Assembly (NCBI GenBank): GCA_964355175.1 | Contig: CAYHBZ010000001.1 | Coordinates: forward strand, 445 to 64,444 | DNA: 64,000 nt | Source: an uncultured Gammaproteobacteria bacterium | GTDB lineage: Bacteria > Patescibacteriota > Patescibacteriia > Magasanikbacterales > GWA2-37-8 | Direction of reading: 5' to 3' | Part shown: piece by piece, positions 10,854 to 57,290 of the stretch | How positions within the stretch are numbered: position 1 is the stretch's first letter | Layout of the letters: each line of letters opens with the position of its first letter | The notes under the pieces: model-generated | The model's database searches: none | Seen by the model: the letters and a program-made list of their open reading frames with translations, nothing else | Told to the model about the DNA's origin: nothing | Made by a program: the position numbers and the translations under genes

Positions 10854-11945
10854 ATGTCCAAAGATTATTATAAAATATTAGGGGTTGAAAAAAACGCCAC
10901 TGCCGATGAAGTCAAAAAAGCTTTCAAGAAGGCGGCGATGCAACACCATCCCGATAGACCCGGCGGCGATGAAAAAAAATTCAAAGAAGCCAACGAAGCC
11001 TACCAGGTATTATCCGACGCCGATAAGCGCGCTAAATACGACCAGTTTGGTTCAGATTTTGAACAGCAGGGTGGATTTGGCGGTGGCGGTAATTGGGATG
11101 ATTTCATGCGTTCGGCTCGCGGTGGTCAGGGCGGTTTTCAGTTTGAAGGCGATCTGGGAGATATCTTTGGTGAAATGTTTGGATTTGGTGGTGGCCGCTC
11201 TCGCGGTGCTTCGCGCCAATCTCGTGGCCACGATATCCAAGTAGATGCAGAGCTGGAATTCAAAGAAGCGGCTTTTGGTGTAGAAAAACATATTCATCTG
11301 CGCAAACAAAGTGCTTGTGATGTCTGTAGTGGTAGTGGTGCTGAGCCTGGCTCCAAATTAGATACCTGTAGCACCTGTAAAGGCCAAGGGCAAGTAGTCC
11401 AGGTCCAGCGCACATTTTTGGGTGCTATGCAGACCGTAGTGACTTGTACCGATTGTCAGGGCAGGGGACAGAAGCCAAGTAAAAAATGTAAACATTGTAG
11501 TGGTAGTGGCGTAATGCAAAAAGATCAGGATATTACCGTAAAAATACCAGCTGGTATTGATGAAGGCGAATCTATTCGTCTCACTGGTTACGGTGAAGCC
11601 GCTGGACATGGAGGTCAAAGCGGAGATTTGTATGTGCGCGCCCATATTAAACCAAATAAATATTTTCATCGTGAAGGTTTTGATGTGTACACTCAAAGTG
11701 AAATTAGTTTTCCTCAAGCCGTGCTTGGTGATAAAATAGAGATAGAAACAATAGACGGTCCGGTGAAACTCATGATACCCGAAGGAATTGAATCCGGACA
11801 ATTGATAAAAGTAAAAGGTCACGGCATAACCCATCTTGGTCGCACCAGTCGCGGTGACCAATTTGTAAAAATAAAAATTCGCGTGCCAAAAAGATTTAGC
11901 CGCGAAGTGCGTAAAAAATTGGAAGATTTAAAAGACGAGTTGTAA
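10854..11945 (+). CDS. dnaJ: co-chaperone DnaJ
   Basis: J-domain (HPD), G/F-rich linker, four CxxCxGxG zinc repeats. Confidence 0.95.
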   Translation: MSKDYYKILGVEKNATADEVKKAFKKAAMQHHPDRPGGDEKKFKEANEAYQVLSDADKRAKYDQFGSDFEQQGGFGGGGNWDDFMRSARGGQGGFQFEGDLGDIFGEMFGFGGGRSRGASRQSRGHDIQVDAELEFKEAAFGVEKHIHLRKQSACDVCSGSGAEPGSKLDTCSTCKGQGQVVQVQRTFLGAMQTVVTCTDCQGRGQKPSKKCKHCSGSGVMQKDQDITVKIPAGIDEGESIRLTGYGEAAGHGGQSGDLYVRAHIKPNKYFHREGFDVYTQSEISFPQAVLGDKIEIETIDGPVKLMIPEGIESGQLIKVKGHGITHLGRTSRGDQFVKIKIRVPKRFSREVRKKLEDLKDEL

Positions 11946-28723: not shown

Positions 28724-29335
28724 ATGAAAAATAATTTTAATACAATACCAGAAGTCATTGAAGAAATAAAAAATGGCGGTATGGTGCTGGTGCTCGATGA
28801 TGAAGACCGAGAAAATGAAGGCGACCTCATAGTTGCCGCGCAAAAAGTAACAGCGGCCCACATAAATTTTATGGCCACCTATGGTCGTGGGATTATTTGT
28901 GTGCCGATGAGTGGCGAAATTTTGGATAGATTGGATTTGCCGTTGATGGTAAAAAATAATCAAGATTCATTTGGCACAGCTTGGACCGTTACGGTGGATG
29001 CTAAAGAGGATGTTGATACTGGTGCTTCTGCTTTTGATCGGGCCAAAACTATTCAGGTGCTTATCAATCCTAATACCAAACCACAAGATTTGGATCGTCC
29101 TGGCCACACTTTTCCTCTGCGTGCGCATCCGGGTGGCGTATTGGCTCGACCCGGTCATACTGAAGCAGCTGTTGAATTAGCGCGTTTGGCCGGTCTTTCT
29201 CCGGCTGGAGCGATTTGCGAAATTATGAATGAAGATGGCACTATGGCACGCGCCCCAGAATTATTTGCATTTTCACGCAAATATAATTTAAAAATTTGCA
29301 CTATAAAAGATTTCATTGAATTTTTAAAAAAATAA
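28724..29335 (+). CDS. ribB: 3,4-dihydroxy-2-butanone 4-phosphate synthase
   Basis: VLDDEDRENEGDL, ICVPM, RPGHTE signature blocks. Confidence 0.85.
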   Translation: MKNNFNTIPEVIEEIKNGGMVLVLDDEDRENEGDLIVAAQKVTAAHINFMATYGRGIICVPMSGEILDRLDLPLMVKNNQDSFGTAWTVTVDAKEDVDTGASAFDRAKTIQVLINPNTKPQDLDRPGHTFPLRAHPGGVLARPGHTEAAVELARLAGLSPAGAICEIMNEDGTMARAPELFAFSRKYNLKICTIKDFIEFLKK

Positions 29336-29343
29336 TATTAACA

Positions 29344-29385
29344 AAAAATCTCTCGATTAATATCAAGAGATTTTATTTTTTTAAG
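29344..29385 (+). terminator. terminator after ribB
   Basis: AAAATCTCT...AGAGATTTT stem with a T-run. Confidence 0.65.
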
Positions 29386-29475
29386 ACTGCTACTACTGTA
29401 AATACAAAATTTATATTCACAGTGGTTGGAGCAGTCTTGAAACTCTCGCGGTTGTACCCACCTCGATGGCTCGAG

Positions 29476-29847
29476 TCACGCAATGCCGTGCATGGCCTTG
29501 AACACCTGGACGACCGTGCGCTGGATTTCAGCATCCTGGATCTGGCCACGGCTCGTGTAGATGGCGCTTGTGCCAAAGCCGTGATTGTAGAACGCCAGGA
29601 AGTCGCGAGCCTCACACTCCCGAATCAGATCTGCCTTGTGGCAATGCATCTTGGTCGAGAGGCGGACCAGGGTGGGCTGGCCGTTTTTCTCCGGCAGGGA
29701 GCTGACGTTGCCGTCCCAACGCCCTTCTTCCAGTTGGTCCAGTCTCAAGCCCAGGAACTTGAAAAGGGGCAATTCATACCCCCAGACACCATCCAGACTG
29801 AGGTGGTTCGGAAAGAGGAGAACTCGCACTTTCGTGGACGTGGACAT
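29476..29847 (-). CDS. hypothetical protein encoded in a high-GC island
   Basis: 123-aa ATG-initiated ORF with protein-like composition inside a ~58% GC segment; other frames there read as high-GC frame artefacts. Confidence 0.4.
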   Translation of the reverse strand: MSTSTKVRVLLFPNHLSLDGVWGYELPLFKFLGLRLDQLEEGRWDGNVSSLPEKNGQPTLVRLSTKMHCHKADLIRECEARDFLAFYNHGFGTSAIYTSRGQIQDAEIQRTVVQVFKAMHGIA

Positions 29848-29972
29848 GGGATTCCTCGCGGAGCAGGTGTTTGCCTGCGGTAGATTGCTTTATTTATACT
29901 ATAATCACGCAAATAGTCAATATCAGCTCTCACCCTTGTTTTTTCCAATCAATAGTGTTAAATTAGCCTAGT

Positions 29973-31751
29973 ATGGCCGATACTCAACTTATCAAAGAGA
30001 AGATAGATTTGGCCCAATTGGTGCAGGAATATGTGCCACTCAAAAAAGCGGGTATTTATTACAAAGCGCCGTGCCCATTTCATCGCGAAAAAACTCCGTC
30101 CTTCATGGTCAATGCCGAAAAGCAAATTTGGAAATGCTTTGGGTGTGGCAAAGGCGGGGATATTTTTTCGTTTGTGCAAGAAATGGAAGGTCTGGATTTT
30201 GTGGAAGCGCTGAAACTTTTGGCTGAGCGTGCTGGTGTAAAGATTGATAGCTATCGTAGTGAAATAGATAAAAGTCAAAAAAATCGTATTTTGGAAATAA
30301 ATCAAAAAGCCGCTTATTTTTTTCATCATGTATTATTAGAGATGTCCGCTTCAGCTGGCGCTCGTGAATATCTGGAAAATCGTGGATTAAAAAAAGAAAC
30401 TATCGAACAATGGCAAGTTGGTTTTATTCCGGATCAGTGGGATTTGCTCACGCAATATTTTCTCAAAAAAGGTGTGGGTATCGATGATCTTATGGCCGCC
30501 GGCCTTACAATAAAAAAAGATGCCGCTCGCGCCGGACAAGGATTTTATGATCGTTTCCGTGGTCGTATTATGTTCCCAATTTGGAATGTGCATGGCAATG
30601 TGGTGGGTTTCACCGGTCGGGTATTGGTAGAGACCGAGCACAGCGGCGGGAAGTATGTAAACACTCCACAGACTCTGGTTTATGATAAATCACGCGTGCT
30701 CTATGGCCTCAACAATGCCAAAACTGAAATAAAAGCCCAGGACCTAGCTGTAATAGTGGAAGGACAGATGGATGTGGTGGCCTGCCATCAGGCTGGTATG
30801 AAAAATGTAGTCGCCTCGTCTGGCACGGCTTTGACTTTGGAACAAATAAAATTACTAAAAAGATATTCACCAAATGTCGCCATGGCCTTTGACGCGGATA
30901 AAGCCGGAGTCGCCGCCGCCAAAAGGGGGATTGATATCGCGCTTACCGAAGGCTTAAATGTTCGCGCAATTTCAATTCCAGATGGTGCAGGCAAAGACGC
31001 TGATGAATGTTTGAAAAAAAATCCTCAAGTTTGGTTTGATTCAGTCAAAAATGCCAGCGATGTGATGGATTGGTTTTTTGCAATGGCGTTCAATAATAAA
31101 GATGTGTCTGGACCTAAAGCCAAACAGCAGGTGGCTGATGAGCTTCTGCCGCTGGTGGGCTTAATTCCATATGCTGTCGAGCGTGACTATTGGCTCAAAC
31201 AGCTCGGGGATCGTCTGGGAGTGGAAGTATCGGTATTGCGTGATGACCTCAAACGTTTTGATAAAAATAAAAAAGAAGGAAATCAGGTAGACAAAAGACC
31301 GGCGGTGGCCAAAGCCGCGCCGCTCGACACCGTAGAGCGCTTACTCCAGCGTCTACTCATGATTTGGAGCTCGCATCCGGAGTATATATCCGCTCAGTGG
31401 TCCAAGTTAAACTCCCGTTGTTATGTCGGAAGTGTTTATCAACACCTTTACGAATCCATAAAAAATCAGTATAATACCAGCAGTCCATTGAGCACTGCTG
31501 ATTGGCAGAATTTTTTTGTAAATACTGATTTGACTTCGGAGTTTGAAAATTTGAAAATGTTGGCCGCTATCGAGCCCGGTGAAACCGAAGATTCCGATCT
31601 GAAGATTGAAGGCGTAGAAATTGTAGTTCGTATCAATGATGAGTGGTCTAGAAAAAAAAGAAAAGAAATTCAATTTCAACTAGCGCAAGCCGAGAAAATC
31701 GGCGACAAAGAACTTTCCCAAAAATTATTTGTGGAGCTTCAAAATATTTAA
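29973..31751 (+). CDS. dnaG: DNA primase DnaG
   Basis: Zn ribbon CPFH...CFGCG, TOPRIM (EGQMDV..., DAD). Confidence 0.92.
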
Positions 31752-31753
31752 TT

Positions 31754-33070
31754 ATGCCAAAGAAGGTGCAAAAAAAGAAAAAAGTTTTAATGAAAAAATC
31801 AACACCAAAAAAACCGGTTAAAAAACCGGTTGTTAAGATTGTGAAAAAGGAAAAAAAGGTTACGGTCAAAAAACCACAGCCAAAAAAAGTTTTTAAACCT
31901 TTGAAGGCCAAGGCCAAGCTAGAAATTAAAAAACCGAAATTCAAGAAAATAATTCCGGTGGTGGAAGAAGTCGTAATAGAACCTACCAATGACGATCTCT
32001 ACAGATTAATCAGCAAGGGTCGTAATCGTGGCTTTATTACCGATATTGAAATGCTAGGGCTAATAAAGCGTCCGGAATGTTATTTGGATTTATACGAAGG
32101 ATTTTTGGATGCACTAGATCGCAATGGTGTGACTGTGGTGGAATCAAACGCGAATTTGCTCGGTGTAAAACCAGAGCACAAAGAAACCTTGAAACAATTC
32201 CAAGGGGCTCAGCCGGATATGGACAGTCCTTTTGATTTGGGTGAAATTTCCTCCGATTCAATTCAGATGTATTTGCGTGAAATTGGTAAAATTCCTTTGC
32301 TCAAAGGTGATGAAGAAGTATCTCTAGCCAAACGCAAAGAGCGTGGTGATAAAGTAGCCGAACGAAAAATTATTGAAGCCAACTTGCGTTTGGTAGTTTC
32401 GATTGCCAAAAAATTTGTCGGCAAAAGTTTGTCTTTGCTTGATCTGATTCAAGAAGGTAATATCGGTCTTTTCCGTGCCGTGAAAAAATTTGATCACCGC
32501 AAAGGTTATAAATTTTCTACTTACGCCACTTGGTGGATTCGTCAGGCTATCACCCGTGCTTTGGCCGACCAATCCCGTACCATTCGTATTCCGGTACATA
32601 TGGTGGAAACCATCAATCGTTTCCAACAAGTACAGCGCCGTCTTACTCAGGATTTGGGTCGTGACCCAACTCCGGAAGAATTAGCCGCCGAAATGGGCGA
32701 GGAAGTTACCAAAATTCAACACATTATCAAAATTTCTCAGGATACCGTATCGCTCGATGTGTCGGTGGGTGACGACGATGAAGATACTCAGCTCGGTGAT
32801 TTCATCGAAGATGTTAAAAATGTTTCACCAGATCGTGCTGCCGGATTGCAGATCTTGCGTGACTATGTCAAAGAGGCTATCAAGTCGCTTTCTCCTCGTG
32901 AACAAAAAATTCTCGAAATGCGTTTTGGGTTGGCTGATGGTGTAACCCATACTTTGGAAGAAGTGGGTCAGGAATTTGGGGTTACGCGTGAACGTATTCG
33001 TCAGATCGAAGCCAAGGCTTTGGAAAAAATTCAGCATACGGATTTGATTGGTAAGCTTAAGGATTATTAA
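31754..33070 (+). CDS. rpoD: primary sigma factor RpoD with a Lys-rich N-terminal extension
   Basis: Regions 1.2-4 ([23 protein letters not shown], region 4 HTH); residues ~1-80 are KKPVKK-type repeats. Confidence 0.93.
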
Positions 33071-53555: not shown

Positions 53556-53825
53556 ATATATAATAATTGGGTAACAAAAAAGGCTACCCGTAACTCTGGC
53601 GGCTCCTTGCGAAGCCCAACAGCCTTTCGACTGCTGACTGGAAAAACAATACCAGAGACGGCGTAGCCATCTCTATGTTTTTCCAGATTTTTGACCATAC
53701 CCGACGGAATTCGACGGGGTTAGGTCTGTTGAATTGTAAAGATAGTATATATTATCTACTTATTTTTATCAACACTTGACACTAATTTTAGTTACTGTAT
53801 AATACTCCTATTCCTTGGTGGAGTA

Positions 53826-55472
53826 TTGGTATCAAAATTGATATCGATCACAGAAACCAAATACAATCTTACTGGTCGATTTGTATTTGATCTCGAACAC
53901 CTTCCAAGGGTGTTTATTTATTTTTTAGTATCCTTTATGGATATTGAAATAACAAAAAATTATATGGATCAATTTACTTCAAATCACCCAAATGCAGCAA
54001 GATTACTCACTTCATTGCGAAACACAGGTTATGATAGTCGAACAGCGATAGAAGACATAATCGACAATTCTATCGATGCTGGTTCGCGTATTATTAATAT
54101 AAATATTAACACTGTTGATAAAGAATCTCGAGTTGTCATTTCAGATGATGGGTCTGGAATGTCACTTCAGATTTTAGACGAAGCTTTAAAATTGGGATCG
54201 GCTACCGAAAAAGACGAAATGTCTGATTTGGGAAAATATGGCATGGGCCTTTGTACAGCTTCTATTTCGATGGCAAAGAGACTTAAAGTAATAACAACAA
54301 CAAACGGACTTGAGTATCTTACTAGTATTCAGGATCTTGATGACGTGGTTAAGGCTAACGATTTTATAAAGGAATTACGTGGCGCAAATACCGATGAAAT
54401 TTCATTGTTCAAAGAATTCGTTAAAGGCGACCATGGAACAGTTGTAATTCTTACAAAGATCGATCGATTGTCTAATGAAAATCTTAGTATATTTTCAGCA
54501 AGTTTAGCCAAAGAGGTCGGTCGTATTTTTCGAAAATTTATTGAATCCGGAATTCAATTTACCATGAATGGAAAAAAGATTGAGTCAGTTGATCCTCTTA
54601 TGTTAGATCAAAAAGGTACGCAAGTATATTCAGACGAAGAATACGAAGTGCCTGTTTCAAACGGTAAAGAAAAAATTCGAGTAAAAGTTGTTATATTGCC
54701 TGATGTAAATGAAGAACTAGAGAAAGAACTTAAGATGAATATCCAGTCGCAAGGTTTCTATTTATTAAGAAATAATCGAGAAATTGCAAACGGCGAGGCA
54801 CTTGATGTATTTAGAAAGCATAACGATTACAATCGTTTGCGAATTGAGCTTTCTTTTACTTCAAATATGGATAATGAAATGGGTGTTCGGTTTACTAAAG
54901 ATGGGGTAAGTCCAAATCAAGCTATAAGCGATTATCTCAAAAGTGAGATTGGAGGACAGGTAGCATCAATCCGAAAAATATTAAAACCAAAGTTTGCTGA
55001 CAAATCAAAAGAAATTGACCATGAGGAGTCTGCAGCTGTTATTGCAAGAAAATCAAAATTGCTTATTACACCAGAAGCCATTATTGAAAAAAGAGAACCA
55101 AAAATGAATGATGGGGCCAAAAAAGAAAAAAACGAGAATGATGAAAAAAGAGAGCGGGTGCCTAACAAAACACGACTTTCTTCAAGAGGGCTTGGTGCAC
55201 GTTTTGAAACTTCATCAATGGGCAGAGAAGGTGCGTTGTACGATTGTTACCAAGAAGGAAAAGTAGTTGTTATACGTTGGAACGTGGATCATCCTTTTTA
55301 TGAAAAGATTATTCTATTAAATAAAGACCGAAAGGATATAACAGCAGGAATAGATTTTCTCATTTATGCCTTAGCTTCAGCGGAGCTTAAAACTACTAAT
55401 GATGATAATGCTGAATTAATAAGTACAATTAAATCAATAATGTCTGCAAACCTAAGAGCCTTGTTGTCTTAA
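53826..55472 (+). CDS. MORC-like GHKL (Bergerat-fold) ATPase
   Basis: N box IEDIIDNSIDAGS, G1 DDGSGMS, G2 GKYGMGL, MORC-like GFYLLRNNREI S5 region; the true start may be the internal ATG at 53937. Confidence 0.7.
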   Translation: MVSKLISITETKYNLTGRFVFDLEHLPRVFIYFLVSFMDIEITKNYMDQFTSNHPNAARLLTSLRNTGYDSRTAIEDIIDNSIDAGSRIINININTVDKESRVVISDDGSGMSLQILDEALKLGSATEKDEMSDLGKYGMGLCTASISMAKRLKVITTTNGLEYLTSIQDLDDVVKANDFIKELRGANTDEISLFKEFVKGDHGTVVILTKIDRLSNENLSIFSASLAKEVGRIFRKFIESGIQFTMNGKKIESVDPLMLDQKGTQVYSDEEYEVPVSNGKEKIRVKVVILPDVNEELEKELKMNIQSQGFYLLRNNREIANGEALDVFRKHNDYNRLRIELSFTSNMDNEMGVRFTKDGVSPNQAISDYLKSEIGGQVASIRKILKPKFADKSKEIDHEESAAVIARKSKLLITPEAIIEKREPKMNDGAKKEKNENDEKRERVPNKTRLSSRGLGARFETSSMGREGALYDCYQEGKVVVIRWNVDHPFYEKIILLNKDRKDITAGIDFLIYALASAELKTTNDDNAELISTIKSIMSANLRALLS

Positions 55473-55519: not shown

Positions 55520-56404
55520 ATGACTGATCAAAATATAATTCAACAAGATTCGCTGGAGCCACATTTGTCGGTCGTTGTTAGTGGTAATTTGGTGGAGCCG
55601 ACACACGACGCCTTTATAGAACAATTAACTGGTGGAAAAAGCAAAAAATACGTCAGATTCGTAATTGCCGCGTTAAGTAGTATTCCTTGGGTGGGTGGTG
55701 TAATCGGAGCAGTAGCAGGTTATAGTGCTGAAAAGGATCAGGAAAAAATCAATATACTACAAAAATTATGGCTTGAGGAACATAGAGAGAAAATAAAAGA
55801 ATTGACGAATACCTTTGCTGAAATTTTTGGCAGATTAGATAGTTTTGGAGACGAAGTGCAACAACGGATCGAGTCACCGGAATACTTGTTATTAGTCAAG
55901 AAAAATTTTCGTATTTGGGACCAAGCGGACACAAACGACAAAAGAGAAATGTTAAAAAAACTTATAACAAATGCTGGCGCAATATCGTTATGCCCGGATG
56001 ATTTAATCAGGCTTTTTATCAGTTGGATTGATTTATATCACGAAGCTCATTTCTCGATAATCAAAGAAATTAATAAAAATCCAGCAATAACTCGAGGGTC
56101 AATATGGGAAGAAATTCATGGTGAAATACCACGTGAAGATTCCGCAGAAGCTGATTTGTATCGTTTATTAATTAGCGATCTTAGTATCGGACGTGTAATT
56201 CGTCAAGCAAGAGACACGGATATGCACGGCAGATTTTTAAAGAAAAGTCGTACCGGCCAATCTCGTAGTCGCTCGTCTGGCATAATGGAATCTGCATTTG
56301 AAGACACCAAACCATATGTGCTAACTGAACTTGGTACGCAATTCGTACATTACGTTATGAAAGACGTGGTGCCAGAGATTGGGACAGGTAACATCTCACC
56401 ATAA
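55520..56404 (+). CDS. hypothetical membrane-associated protein, partner of the GHKL ATPase
   Basis: 294 aa, one TM (FVIAALSSIPWVGGVIGAVAGY); same strand and short gap to the GHKL gene. Confidence 0.5.
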   Translation: MTDQNIIQQDSLEPHLSVVVSGNLVEPTHDAFIEQLTGGKSKKYVRFVIAALSSIPWVGGVIGAVAGYSAEKDQEKINILQKLWLEEHREKIKELTNTFAEIFGRLDSFGDEVQQRIESPEYLLLVKKNFRIWDQADTNDKREMLKKLITNAGAISLCPDDLIRLFISWIDLYHEAHFSIIKEINKNPAITRGSIWEEIHGEIPREDSAEADLYRLLISDLSIGRVIRQARDTDMHGRFLKKSRTGQSRSRSSGIMESAFEDTKPYVLTELGTQFVHYVMKDVVPEIGTGNISP

Positions 56405-56512
56405 TAAAATCTTTCTAAAGTCGTCTAAGACATCCAGAAATAGAAAAAAACGACTTACAATCAATGGTTGATAGCTTTGGTAGGTGAGTTGGTTAATATA
56501 AATATGTCTATA

Positions 56513-56558
56513 GTTTAGCCAAATACCGTCCAATCTCATCCCACATGTAGAGCCAACG
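56513..56558. repeat. ~45-bp direct repeat, copy A (copy B at 57288-57335), flanking a high-GC sub-insert
   Basis: TTAGCCAAATACCGTCCAATCTCATCCCACATGTAGAGCCAA versus TTAGCCAACCACATTCCAATTTCATCCCACAACCAGAGCAAT, about 80% identical. Confidence 0.55.
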
Positions 56559-56767
56559 TGCACGAACAGAAGCGAAAGCTTCTGTTTTTTGTTCAACCAT
56601 ACGGGTTTTTATCAATTATCTCTTACAATCTTTTTTATGCATATATCATTGACAAAACCAACCAAATCATGGTAAGTTTATCTATTCCAAAAACCACACT
56701 TCGTGGATATGGGATCTCCGCCGTGAGAGGGTCGCGGTCAACCAAAGTTCTGAACAAGGAGCATGTC

Positions 56768-57253
56768 ATGCTGGCACGTTTGCAAAAGTACATCCAGGCT
56801 CAAGGGTTCCGTGTCCACGAAATGGCCGAATTGGCCCCTGGCGTGATCGTCGTCCACGACAACTACGGCGAACACGGCGGAGAGTTTGATGCCTACATCG
56901 ACGCTGAAGCCATCGGGCCGACGCAACCGGAAATCTGGGGAGAGGAAGGCCTCGTAACTCCTGGTCTCAAGGGCACTGGCCTCGGCGTCTTGCAGGGCGT
57001 TGCCTTCGGGTCCCCCCCCCAAGAGCGTTTTGCAGTTCTTCCAGGCCGCGCCCCAGCTCCTGACCGGCAAGCAGGCGCCGATCTCCTGGTACGAAGCGCC
57101 CCAGCCGCTCGAAGTCCCGCAGGACATCCGGGCGTGAGCCACATCCGGGTCTTACCAACCCAGGCAGAGCTAGGGTTCTCGGATCCTCGCTCTCGCTGTC
57201 TGAATATTAAATTAGTATTTGGACAACGCGAGCGATTCGAGATTTATATATAA
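56768..57253 (+). pseudogene. high-GC ORF with its own AAGGAG RBS; the C-terminal half reads as a frameshifted product after a C9 homopolymer
   Basis: ~62% GC; SD AAGGAG 7 nt before the ATG; the N-terminal ~80 aa are protein-like, after C9 (57012-57020) it becomes Pro/Ala/Arg-rich; a convergent minus-frame ORF is also protein-like. Confidence 0.35.
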
Positions 57254-57290
57254 AATCCAACCATTTTTATGGTTGGATTTTTATTTTGTA
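57252..57290 (+). terminator. terminator hairpin AAATCCAACCA-loop-TGGTTGGATTT with a T-run
   Basis: Perfect 11-bp stem followed by TTTTATTTT. Confidence 0.7.

Follow-up and report, generated by a model that had tools for sequence, protein, structure and literature searches.

We analysed a 64,000-nucleotide stretch of contig CAYHBZ010000001.1 (the window, in what follows) and, within it, a short GC-rich segment between the ribB and dnaG genes, which carries a 123-aa open reading frame (ORF) on the minus strand (29476-29847). Retrieval of relatives by means of their DnaG proteins placed the host among the Candidatus Magasanikbacteria, of the Candidate Phyla Radiation (CPR; Patescibacteria), and gave a graded series of related loci (designated with the letter L); the interval upstream of dnaG was sampled at ten loci. 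We conclude, with a probability of about 0.65, that the segment is a small, self-contained accessory cassette occupying a hypervariable expression slot, which extends from ftsX or ribB to dnaG in a clade of Candidatus Magasanikbacteria. According to this proposal, a host-type sigma-70 promoter, divergent from dnaG, would drive the synthesis of a GC-rich mRNA made up, in order, of a 5' untranslated region (UTR) hairpin with a Shine-Dalgarno (SD) sequence, the 123-aa ORF, a conserved bulged hairpin and an intrinsic terminator. The chromosome would retain the -35 box at one end and the 3' RNA element with the terminator at the other, and the 5' UTR and the ORF (the cargo) would be replaced from lineage to lineage.

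Comparison of the window with its relatives showed that both the presence and the content of the slot are variable. Locus L001, which is collinear with the window over 13 kb of its 24-kb contig (82-86% nucleotide identity) and was seen in three sequencing runs, carries a cargo whose protein is 80% identical to that of the window. A relative in which ribB and dnaG adjoin each other without the segment, as the first-pass annotation of the window had envisaged, was found in L004: its DnaG is 89% identical to that of the window, the ribB stop codon and the dnaG ATG are only 53 nt apart, and the slot is empty. Across the loci, the cargos were assigned to four families. Family A comprises the proteins of the window, L001, L005 and L038, those of L005 and L038 being 33% and 32% identical to the window protein, respectively, and 44% identical to each other. 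Family B is represented by an ORF of about 114 aa in L023, family C by a 77-aa ORF in L010, and family D by proteins of about 90 aa in L045 and L046 (48% identical to each other, E-value 1e-23). In the lineages with diverged homologues or unrelated cargos, DnaG is 71-91% identical to that of the window.

The tenth locus, L016 (DnaG 87% identical), has a different occupant. At L016:3560-3920, upstream of dnaG, a segment of about 300 nt with a GC content of 0.52 lacks the hairpin, keeps the CTCGCGGTGGCGCCCAC box, and carries a promoter, an SD sequence and an 88-aa ORF on the plus strand. This arrangement suggests a rearranged version of the slot.

The sequences that frame the cargo were conserved. 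The ATTGAC sequence of the -35 box was kept in the window, L001, L005, L010, L016, L023, L038 and L045 (L046 has TTGACA), and is the last position conserved between loci with different cargos. On the other side, the 3' box, the hairpin and the terminator were kept upstream of dnaG in L001, L005, L010, L023, L038, L045 and L046, and the same hairpin sequence follows four unrelated cargos in the slot.

The divergence of the cargo was found to be decoupled from that of its flanks in two pairs of loci. Between the window and L001, the number of synonymous substitutions per synonymous site (dS) was 0.27 in the cargo as against 1.1-1.6 in ftsX, ribB and dnaG, although the low cargo value could partly reflect constraint on the GC content of third codon positions (GC3) instead of recent transfer. 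In this one genome pair, the cargo had a third-position identity of 0.82 and the initial 450 nt or so of dnaG one of 0.70-0.80, compared with 0.42-0.64 in the distal part of dnaG and 0.40-0.56 in ribB, where silent-site identity was not raised; on the aligned sequences, the cargo and the 5' part of dnaG look like a younger tract. Between L005 and L038, identity was 89% at the 5' end of dnaG, 80% in ftsX and 88% in the hairpin, and reached 99% between the DnaG N-termini, whereas the cargos were only 58% identical in nucleotides and 44% in amino acids; homology is lost immediately past the promoter and is regained at the GTGGRCGCAACCGCGG box. As judged from these alignments, decoupling in both directions indicates replacement by recombination, not decay in situ. 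We infer that replacement most likely takes place through the conserved flanks, by recombination after DNA uptake.

The first-pass annotation, made from the letters of the window, had described a segment of about 58% GC with sharp edges, containing an ATG-initiated 123-aa ORF oriented against its neighbours and belonging to no nameable family. All of these points held. The interval 29421-29886 (466 bp) contains 57.7% GC against a window mean of 39.4%, that is, +4.1 standard deviations (0.044 for 466-bp windows). The GC content of 40-bp steps rises from 0.33 to 0.55 across 29400-29420 and falls from 0.62 to 0.28 across 29840-29880. The ORF begins with ATG and is on the strand opposite to that of ribB and dnaG, which are on the plus strand. 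Its GC contents at the first, second and third codon positions (0.59/0.40/0.75) are a coding signature, as expected for a real gene of about 58% GC. No family of Pfam, NCBIfam, PHROG or PADLOC matched it, or a 153-aa ORF on the plus strand opposite to it, at an E-value of 1 or less. The 153-aa ORF is broken by stops in the orthologous locus L001 and is the antisense shadow of the cargo ORF. The annotation had also treated the interval as one foreign segment; the first 60 nt or so belong to the conserved structured RNA element and lie outside the variable DNA.

All eight cargos of the slot are 5 to 19 GC points above their own host, and members of family A in other phyla have a host-like composition, so that elevated GC is a property of the slot occupants and not of the protein family. 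With four unrelated cargos GC-elevated, a foreign origin, as first suggested, fails to explain the GC content by itself. Only one other region of the window exceeds 0.55 GC, at 56.7-57.2 kb (maximum 0.62). A third candidate island, at 10.9-11.5 kb, was rejected: it is a mild GC bump corresponding to the Gly-rich region of DnaJ (10854-11945).

The order promoter, 5' UTR, ORF, hairpin and terminator on the minus strand led us to regard the GC-rich interval as the transcribed body of a monocistronic unit. The predicted cargo promoter (29893-29926, minus strand), located by inspection and by a promoter scan, consists of a -35 element TTGACT (29916-29921), a 17-nt spacer and a -10 element TATAAA (29893-29898); the scan also proposed CTGATA-17-TATAGT as an alternative. 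The GC-rich 5' UTR (29848-29897, minus strand; sequence inspection and folding) contains the SD sequence GAGGAA at 29852-29857 and a small hairpin at 29863-29878 (-10.9 kcal/mol, z = -2.3), and both are also present in L001, L005 and L038. The cargo ORF, which is open in L001, is separated by a 13-nt spacer (29463-29475) from the conserved 3' UTR RNA element (29375-29462, minus strand), defined by our covariance model R1 and formed by a box and a long imperfect hairpin. Beyond it, a terminator scan detected a bidirectional intrinsic terminator (29345-29374) with a 13-bp stem, an A-run on one side and a T-run on the other; its alignment showed compensatory changes and conservation in five loci, and the terminator appears, from its position and sequence, to be common to the convergent ribB and cargo transcripts. 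The promoter, the apex of the hairpin and the terminator are AT-rich and host-like in composition.

A promoter-like site on the plus strand, TTGCCT-18-TATACT (29871-29900), conserved in L001, overlaps the cargo promoter and the 5' UTR, and the transcription of the cargo and that of dnaG may therefore interfere.

We then examined the conserved 3' element. On the minus strand, the box GGUGGGUACAACCGCGAGAG (29443-29462) comes first and a hairpin (29383-29438) follows. The hairpin has an outer stem of 9 bp, an apex stem of 13 bp with a triloop and, on its 5' side, a bulge of 3 nt that lies within the invariant CCAACCAC; its internal loop, CCAACC, is invariant as well. In an alignment of eight loci, which was fitted to the model, 96.4% of the pair cells were standard pairs and seven pairs had changed on both sides; the covariation score was 0.273, compared with 0.152 for shuffled alignments, and was reached by 0 of 500 shuffles. 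When the 3' partner was slid by one to three columns, pairing dropped to 27-51%. The hairpin is more stable on the cargo-sense strand (minimum free energy -31.9 kcal/mol, z = -5.6) than on the other (-27.1 kcal/mol), its 13-bp apex closes on the cargo-sense strand only, and several of its conserved G.U pairs become A.C mismatches on the opposite strand. These features identify the 3' element, on comparative grounds, as a structured RNA read on the cargo-sense strand. Its function would most likely be exerted at the RNA level, either in the stabilisation or processing of the mRNA 3' end or in insulation from the convergent ribB transcript.

Searches with model R1 gave 101 bits at the window locus and 57-107 bits at seven other loci upstream of dnaG, and no further copy in about 485 kb (the window and about 420 kb of related loci), so that the hairpin is locus-specific and not a dispersed repeat. 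A genome-wide repeat of the repetitive extragenic palindromic (REP) kind was rejected, as R1 matched only upstream of dnaG. No Rfam family matched the hairpin at its gathering threshold, the best sub-threshold scores being 16-22 bits against thresholds of 48-94 (E-values 0.8-3.5). No Rfam family or tRNA was found within the island, and an Rfam-type structured RNA in place of the gene was rejected, since the island body gave no match at either gathering or E-value thresholds. A fold scan of the whole window found this class of hairpin only at 29.4 kb and 57.2 kb. A search with the loop motif was not above chance. In the JGI metagenomes, a strict hairpin pattern gave zero matches and a relaxed one gave two true loci and two chance matches; in IMG/VR, the pattern gave one chance match.

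The 123-aa protein had been called the product of an orphan gene, which proved too strong in view of the same-slot homologues described above and of 34 cluster representatives. The only close homologue among 5.8 billion clusters was P0001 (80-81% identical), which comes from the same ribB-dnaG slot, and an exhaustive HMMER search of 1.84 billion representatives gave 34 proteins with an E-value below 1e-3. These are either stand-alone proteins of about 110 aa or longer forms of 314-393 aa with a C-terminal extension; residues P13, G46 and C78 are invariant and L11, P52, R62, S64, C69 and F86 nearly so. A Pfam search with ten of the relatives gave nothing relevant, apart from weak zinc-ribbon matches in one long form, and a profile search of the PDB with the family gave no sequence match. 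The AlphaFold (AF2) model, computed from 35 sequences, is an alpha/beta domain (mean predicted local distance difference test score, pLDDT, 94.6; predicted template modelling score, pTM, 0.88), for which Foldseek found nothing significant in PDB or BFVD (best E-value 0.065, template modelling score about 0.3). The presence of an SD sequence, the conservation of the ORF, the 34 representatives and the pLDDT of the model led us to accept the protein as real. It is cytoplasmic, evolves fast and belongs to a rare and uncharacterised family of alpha/beta proteins. Fast evolution (a ratio of nonsynonymous to synonymous divergence, dN/dS, of 0.43 between the window and L001, estimated from no more than some 49 substitutions), the replacement of the cargo by small proteins of other families and a strong predicted promoter suggest an accessory role under diversifying pressure, and a role of the conflict or immunity type would be our guess.

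A defence gene as such was rejected as an identity for the cargos, none of which matched PADLOC. The gene neighbourhoods of six other family members had nothing in common (three of the contigs were too short). One long form, the 393-aa P0023 with a C-terminal zinc ribbon (L039:346-2709), seems to form an operon with an 89-aa ORF, beside a weakly matched SLATT_4-like gene and a DUF5681 gene, a context typical of conflict systems or mobile elements; the accession number of its sequencing run, SRR22388280, is close to those of L001-L003 and L038.

The second GC-rich region of the window contains a unit of the same kind, which we call the sister cassette (56633-57287, plus strand). It comprises an extended -10 promoter (TTGACA at 56649-56654 and TGGTAAGTT at 56670-56678), a covarying 5' UTR hairpin and an SD sequence (AAGGAG) upstream of the ORF, a 122-aa ORF (56768-57137) with a +1 frameshift in a run of nine C (57012-57020), a bulged 3' hairpin detected by folding (57177-57243) and a terminator at about 57252-57287, all on the plus strand. 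BLASTN showed that its matches in L049 (91%) and L050 (87%) are confined to 56633/56641-57287, exactly from promoter to terminator (about 650 bp), while the flanks are unrelated in all three genomes: a hypothetical gene downstream of an MzaB-like ATPase gene and a GT-D-like gene in the window, a sigma-70-like gene and PNP_UDP_1 in L049, and a methyltransferase gene and DHH in L050. The comparison of these sequences shows that the cassette has moved, as a unit, between non-homologous sites. Between L049 and L050, the downstream flanks are 98.5% identical and the cassettes 91%.

Removal of one C from the run of nine restored an intact 122-aa ORF, full-length 122-aa homologues are 93% and 82% identical to the product, and dN/dS in the ORF was 0.17-0.28. 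The sister hairpin (-32.6 kcal/mol, z = -6.1) is more stable on the sense strand and has the architecture of the first: a triloop on a 13-bp apex, an outer stem and, on the 5' side, a bulge of 3 nt. The two apices share 16 of 19 positions. A joint covariance model was abandoned, since the mid-stems are out of register with each other. Comparison of the two island proteins showed that they are unrelated.

At the position of the nine-C run, relatives carry AGC-C7 and an intact 122-aa protein. The frameshift recurs in an independent assembly (L051, from run SRR24858483), with a contig 100% identical to 55674-57290 of the window; it may mark a genuine pseudogene or phase variation, or come from systematic error in the homopolymer. 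The MzaB-like gene (53826-55472, plus strand) encodes a 548-aa HATPase_c_3 protein that matches the PADLOC model MzaB (E-value 2e-32). The sister island is therefore next to a candidate gene for anti-phage defence, and the region around it looks variable. A full-length LOOT RNA (RF03000, 85 bits, E-value 1e-14) is located on the minus strand (53601-53726), some 100 nt upstream of the MzaB-like gene, at the margin of an AT-rich block (50-54 kb, GC 0.29-0.37) whose GC skew is negative.

The genes and signals on either side of the slot were delimited as follows. The left flank is ribB, for 3,4-dihydroxy-2-butanone-4-phosphate synthase (28724-29335, plus strand; PF00926, E-value 4e-85). On the right, a by-eye alignment of the intergenic regions defined a conserved dnaG leader and promoter region, CCCTTGTTTTTTCC...GTGTTAAATT (29927-29972, plus strand), which is 93% identical to that of L001 and is all that remains between ribB and dnaG at the empty site of L004. 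It is followed by dnaG, the primase gene (29973-31751, plus strand; from the ORF list and the Pfam domains of the L001 orthologue), and by rpoD (31754-33070, plus strand). Within the ftsX-dnaG gap, ribB is itself accessory, being present only in the window, L001, L004 and L023, and it is only 72-75% identical where DnaG is 89-92% identical. The dnaG gene seems to be interrupted in two relatives. In L004, an in-frame stop at codon 30 (L004:4088-4090) is either a sequencing error of the metagenome-assembled genome or the mark of a pseudogene. In L012, an ORF (L012:2669-3862) starts as the DnaG N-terminus, with its zinc ribbon, and then diverges, and the tblastn match to DnaG resumes at residue 58, about 1.3 kb downstream; from its sequence, the interruption may be an intein or another insertion.

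Four other explanations were weighed against the accessory cassette in a variable slot. The one that survives best, although we consider it unlikely, is dedicated gene capture, in which the -35 box, the hairpin or both would be attI/attC-like sites for a hypothetical recombinase moving promoter-to-terminator cassettes into an integron-like 'socket'. It would account for three features: the breakpoints between different cargos are fixed (directly past ATTGAC, and at the GTGGRCGCAACCGCGG box), the sister cassette moved as a precise unit from its -35 box to its terminator, and each cassette has a long imperfect hairpin with a bulge of 3 nt and an apex that the two nearly share. As in integrons, the cargos are small, diverse, often ORFan genes of foreign composition, each followed by a bulged imperfect hairpin, and they would be expressed from a resident promoter (comparable to Pc) at a fixed chromosomal platform. 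However, the attC core sites R'' (RYYYAAC) and R' (GTTRRRY) were absent at the base of the hairpin, CAAGACUG...CAGUCUUR (that of the sister hairpin is UCUCGGA...UUCGAGA), and the only AAC/GTT motif of the hairpin, CCAAC, sits in the unpaired internal loop with no GTTRRRY partner. The hairpin belongs to the platform and stays with the chromosome while the cargo changes, which is the opposite of an attC site, and its G.U pairs point to cargo-sense RNA, not to a folded DNA strand. Unlike an integron, the slot holds one cassette per site, and the cargo brings its own -10 element and 5' UTR. No integrase (IntI) or transposase was found among the 12 genes of the annotated 13-kb collinear locus L001, and neither the window nor some 420 kb of related loci contained additional copies of the hairpin; the TTGAC sequence and the terminator are generic signals that selection alone would preserve.

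A wider form of this idea can be held only tentatively: the Magasanikbacteria, and perhaps other CPR bacteria, might possess an undescribed capture and expression platform for hairpin-marked mini-cassettes of about 0.6 kb, bearing GC-rich ORFan genes and served by a dedicated mechanism. It is just as speculative that such a platform would be integron-like in function and unrelated in mechanism; its hairpin would be either a structured RNA or a recognition element of a new type, and its cargos a reservoir of novel folds.

A one-off horizontal insertion of higher-GC DNA into the ribB-dnaG spacer of the ancestor of the window and L001, with neither a slot nor ongoing exchange, appears very improbable. 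It fits the sharp compositional break, the empty site of L004, the position of the closest homologue at the same place in a sister lineage and the family members in unrelated bacteria, but it is contradicted by the same-slot homologues or unrelated cargos of L005, L010, L023, L038, L045 and L046, by the decoupling of cargo and flank divergence in both directions, and by a promoter, hairpin apex and terminator that are host-like and conserved independently of the cargo. The first-pass annotation had proposed recurrent small foreign insertions, from the two GC-rich islands together. What stands of this is that the segment is accessory, as the empty site shows, and that the island at 56.7-57.2 kb is a like unit which moved between non-homologous sites. 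The segment is neither private nor a recent piece of raw foreign DNA. It forms a whole transcription unit, and the variable slot that contains it is long-lived and common to at least ten related loci, two of which (the empty L004, and L016) lack the hairpin.

We attach as little weight to a further explanation, that of an old, vertically inherited gene evolving very fast in place, its GC content being kept by selection, acting for instance on the structure or stability of the mRNA, or by GC-biased gene conversion, and the different cargos being homologues diverged beyond recognition. The slot, promoter and hairpin are indeed old and in conserved synteny, two deep branches have family A in the slot, and every occupant is GC-elevated. 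The L023 cargo was collinear with the family A profile over 79 columns in hhalign, a match that was not significant (E-value 0.07, probability under 1%). The family C cargo of L010 gave an equally non-significant profile match (E-value 0.09), and family D had no similarity to family A detectable by tblastn. Furthermore, a nucleotide identity of 58% between the L005 and L038 cargos would be hard to reach in situ with flanks at 80-89%, and the cargo shared by the window and L001 is younger than its flanks at silent sites.

That the segment is mainly a structured non-coding RNA, or a chimera of assembly or contamination, with the ORF as a by-product of stop-poor GC-rich sequence, is scarcely credible: GC-rich DNA does give long ORFs on both strands, as the 153-aa antisense ORF illustrates, and there is a real RNA structure at one end, but the GC3 and GC2 values are coding-like, only the minus-strand ORF is conserved, the ORF has an SD sequence, invariant residues are common to its remote homologues, its AF2 fold is confident, the island body has no Rfam match, and the same junctions in three independent Logan assemblies (L001-L003) rule out an assembly artefact or one-off chimera.

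Several points weigh against the accessory cassette itself. The sampling is small, the slot being represented by ten loci and the sister cassette by three contexts. Simple import leaves unexplained the lasting high GC content of long-diverged homologues in the same slot. The promoter, the transcript ends and the translation of the cargo are predictions from sequence. GC3 constraint may have lowered the dS of the cargo, and the dN/dS estimate between the window and L001 has the narrow base given above. Neither a recombinase nor terminal repeats nor target duplications were found, and recombination through the flanks is a deduction from the pattern of divergence. Finally, nothing links the protein to conflict or immunity, given the lack of a PADLOC match and the inconsistent neighbourhoods of family members elsewhere.

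Among known systems, the unit, taken as a cassette in a variable slot, looks most like the 'moron' of phages, which, as described by Juhala and Hendrix, is said to be an extra gene with its own promoter and terminator, lying between genes that are adjacent in related phages and often differing in base composition. The likeness includes a unit of promoter, single ORF and terminator with deviant GC content, placed between genes that are adjacent in the relative L004, and a sister unit at different sites in related genomes. Unlike a moron, it is found on the chromosome of a CPR cell, flanked by ftsX, ribB, dnaG and rpoD, with no phage homologues, and the dnaG slot holds the promoter box and the 3' RNA fixed while only the cargo changes. 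A search for a phage or plasmid origin by tblastn of 50,697 phage and 72,556 plasmid records gave no match for either island protein or for family D; PHROG gave no match for the island protein, and IMG/VR no relative of the sister-island protein.

Replacement-type flexible islands, such as O-antigen and capsule loci or the hypervariable regions of SAR11 and Prochlorococcus, resemble the slot in their fixed site between core genes, in the non-homologous alternatives found in close relatives, in an exchange thought to proceed through flanking homology and in the decoupled histories of cargo and flanks. They differ in holding multi-gene clusters, compared with a single gene of about 0.4 kb here, where all the alternatives are GC-elevated and a conserved structured RNA is part of the frame. 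The 3' hairpin is like REP sequences, bacterial interspersed mosaic elements (BIMEs) and other 3' UTR stem-loops that stabilise upstream mRNA in being stable, mRNA-sense and located between stop codon and terminator; unlike REP/BIME elements, it is single-copy, locus-specific and much longer, with an invariant CCAACC internal loop and a conserved upstream box. Free-standing homing endonuclease genes (seg and mob of T4-like phages) are likewise small intergenic genes with their own promoter, present or absent among relatives, and the less-diverged 5' tract of dnaG beside the island could be a co-conversion tract; in contrast to these genes, no nuclease domain was detectable with Pfam, and unrelated cargos occupy the same site.

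A target of a diversity-generating retroelement was rejected, no repeat of any island segment longer than 17 nt being found in the 64-kb window. Comparison with IS200/IS605 elements and palindrome-associated transposable elements (PATEs) showed one long hairpin, on the 3' side only, with a short and unrelated hairpin in the 5' UTR, and no transposase in the 13-kb context. Nothing comparable was found in the literature; the paper on 'hypervariation' in Gracilibacteria concerns an intragenic repeat (PMC6851277).

The CPR bacteria have tiny, streamlined genomes with few recognisable mobile elements, and the turnover of their accessory genes is poorly understood. The ftsX/ribB-dnaG interval offers a compact and well-delimited example of what appears to be accessory-gene swapping beside the dnaG-rpoD operon. 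It also brings a new RNA motif, supported by covariation and absent from Rfam, a rare protein family whose confident predicted fold has no match in PDB or BFVD, and a puzzle in the elevated GC content of every slot occupant. If the exchange is mediated by an enzyme, the slot would represent a new kind of gene-capture system; if it proceeds by plain homologous recombination, the slot would still be useful for following gene flow and diversity-favouring selection within an uncultivated phylum.

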